A stretch of DNA of 64,000 nucleotides. Origin: Octopus vulgaris (Eukaryota). Where the stretch lies: NCBI GenBank assembly GCA_951406725.2, contig OX597822.1:59892001-59956000 (forward strand). Reading direction: 5' to 3'. Each line of letters begins with the position of its first letter. Position 1 is the first letter of the stretch. Made by a program: the position numbers and the translations under genes. Below are positions 41,132-62,714 of this stretch, piece after piece. The notes under the pieces were generated by a model. That model had not been told where the DNA came from. It did no database searches and worked only from the letters and a program-made list of their open reading frames with translations.

Positions 41132-41188
41132 ATGCTTCAATCAGCCGGTAGATTCCTGCTCTGCGCTTTTGTTGCTACAATAACTTCT
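41132..41188 (+). CDS. Paralog 2 exon 1: signal peptide [19 protein letters not shown]
   Basis: ATG plus hydrophobic core; GTAAGT donor. Confidence 0.8.
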
Positions 41189-44100
41189 GTAAGTATTCTG
41201 TCTTGGATTCTTTACAAACCGAACACCCACACGCACGCACGCACGCACGCACACACGCACACACACACAAACGCCACACCACACCACTCCACAGAGATTC
41301 TGTATAATTTTTTTAGACATATATGTGTCTTTATATATACATATACATATGTGCGGGGGTGTATCTATGTATGTTTGTATGTGCTTGCAAGCATGTGTAT
41401 GCATATATATATATATATATATATATATATATATATATATATATATATACATATATATATATATGTTTATATATATTTTATATATATATATATACACATA
41501 CATATCCACTCAGCCGAAATTGCGACGATGATCCAGTTCTTGACTGAGGCTAGAAAGCTTCGAATGACCCGTCCTTGATTTTTTATATACATATATATAT
41601 ATATATATACATCATACATATACATACATATGTATGTATATATATATATATATATATATATATATATATATATATATATATATATTGGAATATATATATA
41701 TAATGGAAAGATTAGAATATATAGAATATAAAAGCTTTCGTGTTTGGATAAATAACTATGGAAGACTGGTGGGGATATTATCTGTATGGACTTCAAGGTA
41801 TAATTTGCTATTTAGTTAAGAGATAATTTAAGAGATAGTTATAGGTTTGCTTATAGAATTAATTTCCCGATACTGTTTTTGTACATAAGACATTTTCTTT
41901 TTTGGTAATTTAATCAATAATGTTAGTGTTTAATCCTTCCTAGAATTCAGATAGGATGAATGTAGTGATATATATGGTATATTTGCTCCCAAACTGGCCT
42001 TAAGCCGATTGGACCGATTATTCAGAGAATAAGCTAACCTCAGTCAAGAATATATATATACGTATATATATATTATATATATATATATATATATATATAT
42101 ATATATATATATATATATATATATATATATATATATATAACTGCTATTTCTAGTATACTAAACAACAACGTTAAGGACCGGTGACCTTTGAGTTTATTTA
42201 AAAGAGAGAGAAAATGCTTTACACGACAAATTCCTATGTAACCGTAATTTACACCATCTGAGACGTATATGTAGAAAAGTTTCATAACAAATTATCCATA
42301 TTTCGGAATGTTACCACACACACGCACACACACACACACACACACACACACACACACACACACACACACTCACATATATATATAACAGGGGCCAACAAGC
42401 CAGGGGCTACGTCTGGCACCCGTCTGCTCTGGCATGGTTTTTGTGGCTGGATGCCTTCTTAAAGCCACTATTTTACAGTCTTGAGTGCAGAGCCCAAATT
42501 GATAGAGAACTCAGCCTGCATTTCAACAGTTTTCAAAAGCAGAACATTAATGCGCCTAGGTACTGATGACTTTTGTAGTCTTGTGTGTTTCAACTGGAAC
42601 GTAGCCTTACTACGGAGAAGAGAATGGTCAGAAAGATAGCAGGTGTTATGAAAGGAACGTATAACGTTAAAGTCCCTAACATCTCGTTTCTTAGTGATAA
42701 CATAATCTATGAGATACCAATCCTTAAATCTAGGATGCATCCAGGTCCTCTTGTAACAATTTCACTGTAGTAAAAAATGGTATTTGTGATGCTTAGAATG
42801 AATTCCCTGCAGATGGAAATCACATGCAGCCCGCTGGAGTTTATTCGATCTACACCATGGTGACCAAGTCACCCTCCCATGCCTGATAATTAGTAACAAC
42901 ACGAGCGTTAAAATCACCCATAAGGATAAGTTTATCCCTATTGTCACAACTGGAGATGACATCACGGAGTTGGTCGTAAAATTCATCCTTTTCCTCTTCA
43001 GTGCTGGCCATGGTTGGGGCATAGCAGCTGACAAACATAGTACGAGTGTTGTGATCAAGTTCCAACGCTAGTGTCCTGATGCGATGAAAGAATTAATCTA
43101 GCTATTTCTGTTTTGATGGCAAAACCAACACCATAAAAATATGTATCCACCTTTACTTTCTTCTAACTGTAATGACTCTGCTCGACGAGTTTCACTGAGT
43201 GCAGCTATGTCAATATTGTATTTCTTTAGTTCAAGGGCGACCAGTGCTATTTTTCGTTCTAGTGCTGAGTGACTGTCTTGGAGAGTGCGCACATTCCAAG
43301 AGCCAAGGTTAATATCCTTAGATTTCTTCGTGTTTCAACTGCGTTACTGAATAACCAGACAGCTGAAGCGGGTTCATAACTTTAATGTGAATAAGCAGTG
43401 TTTAGGGCTCCATTTCTCGCCGCTCTTCCTGTTGAGGAAAGCAGTGCTGTGTCTAAAAAAGCTGCTTTGTCACTACTGGAGGACACGGACAGCACAGTTA
43501 CTCGCACGTTCTGTGCTTGAACGGCCATCACCCAATGGTCGCCAACTGTGTAGAGATCGAGCAAGAGATTTCCATTAATATCCTTTACCTATTCCTGCCA
43601 CTTTCACTCTCTCGCCAGAGGACATTTTGATTTTTTTCAAGTTGAAGCTATGCCATATTGCATGAATAAATGTAAGTTGTCAGAAAACCCACACATATGA
43701 TTTGATTTGAGTACTGAAGGCTTGTGTAGAACCAGCCACACTTTTTGGAAGTGATGATAGCAAGAATATGGTGCACATATGCGCCACAAATACCAACAAC
43801 AACATACCTCAGGCTTTTTCTCCAGAGGTTTCCATCTCCTAGACGAGTCGTTATAAACAAGCTGGAGAACCTAGTCTACCCTATGAGTCAGAGTTTGCTG
43901 ACAGTACAGCCTTGTTAAGGAGGTCATCAGCAACCAAAAGCCTGGGTTAATATCAGAGTTTCCCTTTCCTAGATGGGATACCTTCACAACGGTTAAGGAG
44001 CCCCATCTGCCCCCTTATGGAATTAAATACACCAGGAAAAAATTATACGCATATATAGTTGGATGGCTGTTGACAACTCATTAGTTCTCCTGCCCTCTAT

Positions 44101-62100: not shown

Positions 62101-62714
62101 TCATTATTGCTTTAACATCCCCTTTTCCATGCTTGCATAGGTCAGGCAGATAGATAAGACCTTGCATCTGTCAGATTTTCAACAGCTGAATACATTTTTT
62201 GCTGCCAACCCGCACCTGTCTCCAAGTAAAAAAATATTTCTTGATAGCCAGACATGGTTTTACAGGATACTGGAAATGAATAACACTCATGTGTAACAGT
62301 CATGCAGTAGCAAGACCAGGAGACACAATCATGCATGCACACACACACATATATACATATACATACATGTATGCACATATTCATACATGTATACATATAC
62401 CCCTCATGTTGCCAGTCTCATCAATTAATTAAATGTGATCATCGATAAATGTTTACTCAATCATCAGTTACATATAATTAAAATTCATTTATTCGGCACT
62501 TGTAATAAAAGTCAATTTTGTTCATATTTTTTCACTAGGCTTCAAATGTCCTGAAGCTTCAGGTCTTTTCCCTGATCCACAAAGCTGCAGACATTTTTAT
62601 CATTGCGACTGGAATATTGCCTACAGAAAGGATTGCCCTGGAAACTTGCACTTCAACAGGGAAAAGCAAGTGTGTGATTGGCAATACAGAGCCAACTGCA
62701 ATATTAGAAAATAA
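41132..62714 (+). CDS. Paralog 2: secreted Delta-like protein, SP-C2/MNNL-DSL-13xEGF-CBM14 (10 coding exons, intact, 763 aa)
   Basis: Exons 41132-41188, 46052-46241, 49717-49799, 52661-52828, 54091-54235, 54916-55026, 55718-55837, 57465-58691, 59587-59601, 62539-62714. Total 2292 nt = 763 codons + TAA, open throughout, all GT-AG. Confidence 0.9.
42468..44010 (-). mobile_element. RTE-clade LINE 5' fragment (APE endonuclease), degenerate
   Basis: [46 protein letters not shown] motifs on the minus strand; upstream boundary approximate. Confidence 0.8.
44441..44781. repeat. Inverted repeat with ~155-bp arms, each carrying a degenerate hammerhead motif
   Basis: Arms share agactttat, cactagagatttcttgggtcgg and gaatttga in opposite orientation; hammerhead-like cores at 44486-44528 (-) and ~44693-44737 (+). 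Confidence 0.8.
46052..46241 (+). CDS. Paralog 2 exon 2: C2/MNNL domain, N-terminal part
   Basis: [64 protein letters not shown]. Confidence 0.85.
47025..47645 (+). mobile_element. Penelope-like element fragment (GIY-YIG) with inverted 5' segment
   Basis: [21 protein letters not shown] in ORF 47080-47283; 47025-47078 is an inverted copy of ~47121-47173. Confidence 0.65.
47856..47890 (+). ncRNA. Minimal type-I hammerhead ribozyme motif
   Basis: GTTT-CTGACGA-a-GAGC-tcc-GCTC-GAAACGTT-AAAC: stems I and II pair, catalytic boxes intact, palindromic AACGTT at stem III. Confidence 0.7.
49717..49799 (+). CDS. Paralog 2 exon 3: C2/MNNL middle
   Basis: [36 protein letters not shown]. Confidence 0.8.
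50286..50560. repeat. (TAT)n microsatellite in intron 3, shorter homolog at 19038-19160
   Basis: Seen directly. Confidence 0.95.
50874..51123. mobile_element. Mariner-derived MITE, only in paralog 2 intron 3
   Basis: TIRs ttgggttggtgcataattat / ataattatgcaccaacccaa, TA duplication; empty site at ~19493. Confidence 0.85.
52661..52828 (+). CDS. Paralog 2 exon 4: C2/MNNL C-terminal part
   Basis: [21 protein letters not shown]...[16 protein letters not shown]. Confidence 0.8.
53803..53940 (-). mobile_element. tRNA-derived SINE-like repeat (second family)
   Basis: Minus strand ggtggcgagctggcagaatcgttagc...gagttaaaattccgccgaggtcgactttgcctttcatcc; absent at the paralog 1 site. Confidence 0.6.
54091..54235 (+). 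CDS. Paralog 2 exon 5: DSL domain
   Basis: [48 protein letters not shown]. Confidence 0.9.
54916..55026 (+). CDS. Paralog 2 exon 6: EGF repeat 1
   Basis: [36 protein letters not shown]. Confidence 0.9.
55718..55837 (+). CDS. Paralog 2 exon 7: calcium-binding-type EGF repeat 2
   Basis: [39 protein letters not shown]. Confidence 0.9.
56915..57232. mobile_element. Mutator-like MITE with 16-bp subterminal repeats, only in paralog 2 intron 7
   Basis: gccgaacggacataaa repeats on the left, inverted on the right; flanked by duplicated tgtattaaacag; single site at ~25822. Confidence 0.75.
57465..58691 (+). CDS. Paralog 2 exon 8: 11-EGF exon
   Basis: Lies inside ORF 57317-58732; 11 six-Cys EGF modules; donor G|GTAAG. 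Confidence 0.92.
59587..59601 (+). CDS. Paralog 2 exon 9: 15-nt linker micro-exon (VPDQG)
   Basis: ttcttttgcag|TACCTGACCAAGGAA|GTAAGT; differs from paralog 1 by an in-frame 3-nt indel. Confidence 0.65.
59764..60718. mobile_element. Long-TIR (~270 bp) non-autonomous foldback element, only in paralog 2 intron 9
   Basis: ctttcacccgcacgattt / aaatcgtgcgggtgaaag termini; 59764-60040 is inverted at 60420-60718; an extra internal copy of the terminus at ~60305-60420. Confidence 0.8.
62539..62714 (+). CDS. Paralog 2 exon 10: CBM14 chitin-binding domain and stop
   Basis: [57 protein letters not shown]. Confidence 0.9.

Follow-up and report, generated by a model that had tools for sequence, protein, structure and literature searches.

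A gene on the plus strand of an Octopus vulgaris contig, at positions 41132-62714 of the 64,000-nucleotide stretch analysed here (the window), encodes a protein of 763 amino acids in which a Notch-ligand-type head is followed by a rod of EGF domains and then by a chitin-binding domain, CBM14, where a membrane anchor would be expected. The architecture is real, and it consists of known domains in an apparently undescribed combination. The protein is likely to act as a spacer rather than as a Notch signal because its head lacks the known Notch-binding residues. On balance we favour the view that it is secreted and tethered to chitin, that its head sits on lipid or on a partner other than Notch, and that it was built from a non-canonical lophotrochozoan Delta-like gene.

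No description of a protein with both DSL and CBM14 was found in a literature search that left subscription journals mostly outside and covered several supplements in part; as far as that search reached, the preliminary description of this DNA, which knew of no such architecture, is borne out, and its guess of a cephalopod source was right as well. The 'DSL' of PMC8217771 is a plant lectin, and the parts of PMC8166818 that were examined make no mention of 'chitin'. Public database entries of the family carry automatic names ('jagged-1b-like', 'delta-like', 'notch homolog 1-like', 'fibropellin-like'), some of them listing both Pfam families, and because of these names studies that count octopus Notch pathway genes or follow their expression can be misled. 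The family is a clean case of exon shuffling, in which a Notch-ligand-type head has passed into a likely extracellular, chitin-tethered protein whose seven copies differ mainly in rod length. It provides a natural test of a C2-DSL head without its Notch residues, new candidates for octopus chitin structures or secretions and, should it prove to act on Notch, a natural matrix-anchored ligand.

Gene structure and transcripts

Ten exons, separated by nine introns that are all GT-AG and consistent in phase, form an open reading frame of 763 codons and a stop, as first proposed (Table 1). A Pfam run on seven exon translations of the gene matched all four families that this reading led us to expect: MNNL above its cut-off in exon 2, DSL in exon 5, EGF once each in exons 6 and 7 and 11 times in exon 8, and CBM_14 in exon 10 (51.7 bits against a cut-off of 22.1). 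Exon 4 matched no relevant Pfam family, and no VWC domain was matched. The EGFs are put at 13 because 78 cysteines stand between the DSL domain and the linker; six of the 13 have an O-fucose consensus and five an O-glucose consensus. The N-terminus is hydrophobic over a 19-residue window, and after residue 30 no membrane segment is seen, the best 19-residue hydropathy there being 0.61. A hydropathy scan for a hidden membrane exon gave many hydrophobic frames, as AT-rich DNA does. With the Pfam matches, the cysteine count and the hydropathy, the proposed order of signal-type start, C2/MNNL, DSL, 13 EGFs, micro-exon, CBM14 and stop therefore holds, and the splicing of exon 8 to the CBM14 exon confirms that membrane segment and cytoplasmic tail are both missing.

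Transcript support came from contigs of four of the 24 listed runs, from four studies, aligned to positions 52620-63400; these are read as RNA because their joints skip GT-AG introns. The joints of exons 4-5, 5-6 and 6-7 were seen in all four runs and that of exons 7-8 in three. A joint from exon 8 to exon 10 was listed in three runs, with the letters of the micro-exon visible for two, and in the fourth a contig's loose end leaves exon 8, reads the micro-exon and goes on with exon 10. The proposed splicing of exons 8, 9 and 10 is thus borne out, and a prediction artefact or a fusion of two genes is ruled out by the same joints. Among the joints listed for the four runs, none connects exon 8 to any other exon, such as one encoding a transmembrane segment. 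Exon 3 is read before exon 4 by a contig's loose end in one run, and junctions 1-2 and 2-3, which lie outside the aligned stretch, rest on database models. The path from DSL to CBM14 is assembled from several contigs, none of which spans it singly, and reads of paralogs may sit on this copy. In a run from another organism the linker micro-exon has an 18-nucleotide form.

The Octopus sinensis protein XP_029641279.2 is identical to the 763-residue protein at 750 of 763 positions. Among named O. vulgaris proteins, P0162 agrees by eye with exons 1-7 but continues into intron 7, so its model is without the CBM14 end. Several O. sinensis RefSeq isoforms (P0002, P0004, P0164 and others) appear to be mixed from exons of neighbouring copies and to differ in whether they carry the micro-exon; they may be model chimeras or real alternative forms.

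As defined in PMC5356439, a Delta protein has a signal peptide, MNNL/C2, DSL, at least nine EGFs and transmembrane and intracellular domains, and a protein with a DSL domain plus a further conserved domain absent from Delta is 'DSL-like'. The octopus protein has a hydrophobic N-terminus at the place of the predicted signal peptide, the MNNL/C2, the DSL and, with 13, enough EGFs for a Delta, and it is without the transmembrane segment and the intracellular domain; of the features of Serrate/Jagged (at least 16 EGFs, VWC, membrane segment) it has none. By this definition, with DSL and CBM_14 together, it is 'DSL-like' and neither Delta nor Jagged. Canonical identity is rejected also on the replaced Notch-binding DSL residues and the ordinary EGF1-2. 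What it shares with the canonical Delta/DLL and Serrate/Jagged ligands (PDB 4XL1, 4XBM, 4CBZ, 7ALK) is a predicted signal-type start, the C2/MNNL, the six-cysteine DSL and the EGF array; it differs from them in having no membrane segment, tail or VWC, in its EGF1-2 and DSL residues, and in the added C-terminal CBM14.

Table 1. Positions in the window of the exons, flanking elements and neighbouring paralog
Feature	Position	Strand	Basis or remark
Promoter-like elements: two reverse CCAAT boxes (~40776, ~40818), TATA-like box (~40900)	40776..40907	+	function putative
Exon 1, predicted signal peptide	41132..41188	+	hydropathy 1.88; helix 2-17 in a relative's model
Exon 2, first part of C2/MNNL	46052..46241	+	PF07657 E 2.8e-5; alignable to DLL4, DLL1, JAG1
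Exon 3, C2 domain	49717..49799	+	contig loose end at exon 4 reads exon 3
Exon 4, end of C2 domain	52661..52828	+	contig joints, alignment; seven copies in genome
Exon 5, DSL with Notch-binding loop replaced (DIPISEQTR for RPRDDFFGH)	54091..54235	+	PF01414 E 1.2e-12
Exon 6, EGF1, ordinary type	54916..55026	+	PF00008 E 9.2e-9
Exon 7, EGF2	55718..55837	+	PF00008 E 4.5e-9
Exon 8, EGF3-13, spacer of copy-dependent length	57465..58691	+	11 Pfam EGF stretches
Exon 9, 15-nucleotide linker micro-exon	59587..59601	+	present in contigs, flanked by exons 8 and 10
Exon 10, coding part, CBM14 and stop	62539..62714	+	PF01607 E 9.5e-14; solved CBM14s matched
3' untranslated region, AATAAA at 62989 and 63049	62715..63080	+	contigs of four runs stop at 63066-63080
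Paralog 1 (g3), same ten exons; exon 8 (26093-28631) with ~21 EGFs, frameshifted in this assembly	11542..31397	+	exon models, Pfam

Head, tip and selection

In Jagged1, residues F199, R201, R203, D205 and F207 form the Notch site of the DSL domain, according to PMC3415683. They align with R181, D183, P185, S187 and Q189 of the octopus protein, and all five are replaced in seven of seven genomic copies and in 30 of 30 database entries, many of which are isoforms. The change at R201, to aspartate, reverses a charge. The three canonical ligand genes of the same octopus genome retain R201, R203 and D205. EGF1 is of the ordinary type in all family rows that were classed, and the short atypical EGF1-2 (DOS type) of canonical ligands is absent. 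Of 16 canonical-type rows, 15 have the aromatic residue of the C2 YQ/FQ motif, a contact to Notch EGF12, and of eight family rows none has it; the motif is absent from nine non-canonical rows as well. A Notch agonist or decoy is disfavoured because the DSL residues, the short EGF1-2 and the C2 motif are all missing, and the suggestion of a matrix-anchored agonist or decoy made in the preliminary description runs against the sequence. Of the three functional options considered there, a scaffold derived from a Notch ligand and reused is the best fit.

The ligand fold itself appears to be retained. The head matches DLL4 in sequence (E 5.9e-14), and in an AlphaFold model of a 429-residue relative the C2 domain is predicted with a local confidence (pLDDT) of ~80-97 and has DLL1, DLL4 and JAG1 as its top Foldseek matches. 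A complex prediction with residues 20-252 of P0002 and one exon of octopus Notch EGF11-12 scored 0.00, which is evidence in neither direction since the partner's fold was uncertain and both EGFs were cut. C2 domains of Notch ligands bind liposomes, as PMC8490980 reports.

At the other end of the protein, the six cysteines of CBM14 are kept (C709, 722, 728, 738, 751, 759). In chitotriosidase, P451, L454 and W465 had the most effect on chitin binding (PMC5459812), and their equivalents P739, L742 and W753 are kept in all seven copies. Among solved CBM14s the best match was clam chitinase (E 5.3e-11), and tachycitin, chitotriosidase and a squid beak protein were also matched. From these residues, the tip is predicted to bind chitin. 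The six-cysteine CBM14 and the chitin-site P, L and W are common to CBM14/peritrophin-A proteins (tachycitin, the CBM14 of chitotriosidase, clam chitinase 6G9C and squid beak chitin-binding protein 3, 7BWE), from which the octopus protein differs in that its single CBM14 follows a C2-DSL head and an EGF rod, with no GH18 and no tandem CBM14s.

When the genome was searched with the CBM14, DSL and exon 4 sequences, each gave seven close copies, all on a single contig (C9:59.82-60.08 Mb). The ratio of non-synonymous to synonymous change (dN/dS) was taken between the oldest copy and five others, leaving out g7, the young pairs being too close to judge. It was 0.25-0.29 for C2 exons 2-3, 0.22-0.31 for DSL, 0.14-0.23 for CBM14 and 0.31-0.45 for EGF1-2. 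Head and tip, at ratios of 0.14-0.31, are under purifying selection; the changed head is therefore kept and not decaying, and a decaying pseudogene is rejected.

Proposed function and alternatives

We propose that the protein would be secreted, that its CBM14 tip, judging by the conserved residues, would bind chitin, and that the EGF rod, with 4 to ~23 EGFs, would set a distance specific to each copy. The C2-DSL head may then grip membrane lipid, as the liposome binding of ligand C2 domains suggests, or a partner other than Notch, so that the protein would tie a chitin layer to the surrounding epithelium or secretion. Several points weigh against this reading. In nematodes, DSL ligands whose DSL domains have diverged are still able to signal, and some CBM14s, such as that of Der p 23, bind no chitin. 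Among 102 DSL matches R201 is kept in 41 and R203 in 53, so the loss is not special to the family; since about half of the other DSL matches are without the arginines, it is the mark of a broader non-canonical class. In the AlphaFold model the CBM14 part has a pLDDT below 50, because the alignment is without depth there, and the quick tree described below leaves the origin of the family unplaced.

Another possibility, which we regard as unlikely, is a protein released into saliva, gut fluid or blood to recognise foreign chitin, which would coat crustacean prey cuticle, fungi or parasites by its CBM14 and show its head to membranes or effector proteins. The CBM14 resembles those of tachycitin and chitinases, the genes have expanded in tandem, and in several young pairs amino-acid changes per site outnumber silent ones in EGF1-2 (17 against 1 differences between g2 and g5, the counts being small). 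Head and CBM14 are, however, not hypervariable between copies. The only lead to a tissue is a probable relative in the posterior salivary gland proteome, where PMC7693380 gives an O. vulgaris protein of 803 residues with four unique peptides; in nr it is matched best by the family member XP_014781346.1, at 43.9% identity across 99.9% of its length. For the cluster copies tested, identity to XP_014781346.1 is 51-70%, and the salivary protein is for this reason probably a more distant relative. It was not located within 100 kb either side of the cluster, at the CBM14 locus of a chitinase on C17 or at three long exons of EGFs, of which two have cadherin-type exons next to them. No family match was present in the parts searched of the skin mucus (PMC10138644) and ink (PMC10142993) supplements or in the files searched of a brain atlas supplement (PMC9712504).

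Less probable again is a matrix-anchored modulator of Notch, bound to chitin and presenting its C2-DSL head to the Notch of the neighbouring epithelium, which it would either activate, with the matrix exerting the pull, or block as a decoy. The retained ligand fold is consistent with such a role. C. elegans DSL-1 has one EGF and no CBM14 and acts on Notch-type receptors. DSL-1 is a secreted DSL protein and has no membrane anchor (PMC3415683). Chitons express notch and delta in shell fields and spicule cells, and delta is found close to the developing radula too (PMC12046283); in annelids, Notch has a role in the chaetal sacs (PMC10970066). Against this stand the five replaced DSL contacts, including the reversed charge at R201, the absent short EGF1-2 and C2 motif, and a genome that already has three canonical ligands. 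We give little credence to a bolder version, in which a re-evolved DSL surface makes the protein a Notch ligand anchored by chitin matrix, the growth or strain of the cuticle replaces the endocytic pull, and copies with 4 to ~23 EGFs set the reach. Also very doubtful is a plain structural filler, in which only CBM14 and the cysteine-rich rod count, by cross-linking or assembling with itself within a chitin layer, and the head survives as a unit for folding or oligomerising. EGF number varies freely, the CBM14 is single, and there are EGF-rich matrix proteins, fibropellins among them; against this reading, purifying selection has preserved the head, changed DSL loop included, in each of the seven copies.

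Relatives, origin and the gene cluster

Close relatives were found only in three Octopus species and, as a fragment, in Argonauta: word-based database searches returned Octopus proteins only, and the fragment, 93 residues of Argonauta hians, is 47% identical. A HMMER search with the head against 1.84 billion representatives gave 274 matches at E 0.001, with five Octopus entries at 250-398 bits and the next match at 83. A CBM14 profile made from ten octopus domains scored in none of the 145 non-seed matches listed of these 274; the profile is narrow (it missed the 1056-residue family member P0005) and many matches are fragments, so no absence from squid or cuttlefish is shown by the matches listed. 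The DSL-CBM14 architecture has so far been seen only in octopods. The ESM Atlas gave generic Delta-like and EGF clusters, all below 0.9 and none with CBM14.

In a quick tree of 63 C2-DSL regions, restricted to matches covering most of the head, the family is a long-branch clade (support 98 by the SH-like approximate likelihood-ratio test, SH-aLRT) outside the Delta/Jagged clade (95). Outside the family, Delta-like proteins of a nemertean, an abalone, an annelid, a snail and a mussel are among the best matches to head and EGF1-2, and EGF1 is of the ordinary type in those that were classed. Four non-canonical lophotrochozoan Delta-like proteins, Platynereis AKP06501.1, Tubulanus XP_074654184.1, Haliotis XP_067684044.1 and Mytilus XP_052086414.1, share with the octopus family a C2 domain without the YQ motif and a divergent DSL loop; in the first three, DSL is also followed at once by an ordinary EGF1. 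Unlike the octopus family, those of Tubulanus, Haliotis and Mytilus have a membrane segment. We infer an origin from a non-canonical lophotrochozoan Delta-like gene whose membrane and cytoplasmic exons would have been swapped for a CBM14 exon. The genome has at least 130 CBM14 matches, and one of the nearer ones, on C17, sits downstream of GH18 chitinase exons; it illustrates what a donor exon could have looked like and is not put forward as the donor itself.

Other loci of the genome carry related exons. A non-canonical DSL gene at C11:67.23-67.28 Mb (L023, L062-L065, L080) has a divergent DSL split by an intron, an ordinary EGF1 and EGF2, each with an exon to itself like in the family, and then ~20 further EGFs; no CBM14 was found in 110 kb around it. 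Two more Delta-like genes with a split DSL exon lie on C13 (L021, L022), of which that at 11.84 Mb shows an ordinary EGF after DSL and that at 12.01-12.03 Mb shows C2 exons. At C5:121.01-121.06 Mb, three CBM14 exons with equal scores or frames stand ~25 kb apart and may belong to a further tandem family whose members end in a single CBM14.

Exons 1-8 and 10 are present in all seven copies of the cluster, with order and strand unchanged, and the micro-exon was matched in four. The numbers of EGFs are 15 in g1, 11 in g2, ~23 in g3, 13 in g4, four in g5 and eight in g6. The promoter-like elements align and are conserved 5' of all seven, with one-base variants in g1 and g2. Paralog 1 had been described as having the same structure as the gene analysed here; this stands for its exon order, and its reading frame is broken in exon 8 in this assembly. 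There, a two-EGF unit of 219 nucleotides is repeated in tandem (window 26644-27956), and two units of 218 nucleotides break the frame. The database proteins for this paralog are intact, with 1056 residues and 21 EGFs, and the break may be real or an assembly error. In g7, exon 2 is frameshifted in this assembly and an extra pair of exons 7 and 8 is present (C9:60.070-60.074 Mb), so that this copy may be broken or the product of recombination. Intron 2 of paralog 1 contains part of a second exon 1 (window ~13100-13160), and the same is seen in g7. Between the copies are pieces resembling retrotransposons of the long interspersed nuclear element type, with endonuclease- and reverse-transcriptase-like frames (window 100-6900 and 35500-37700, minus strand). 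Fragments of a Mariner-like transposase lie at window 8858-9912 on the plus strand.

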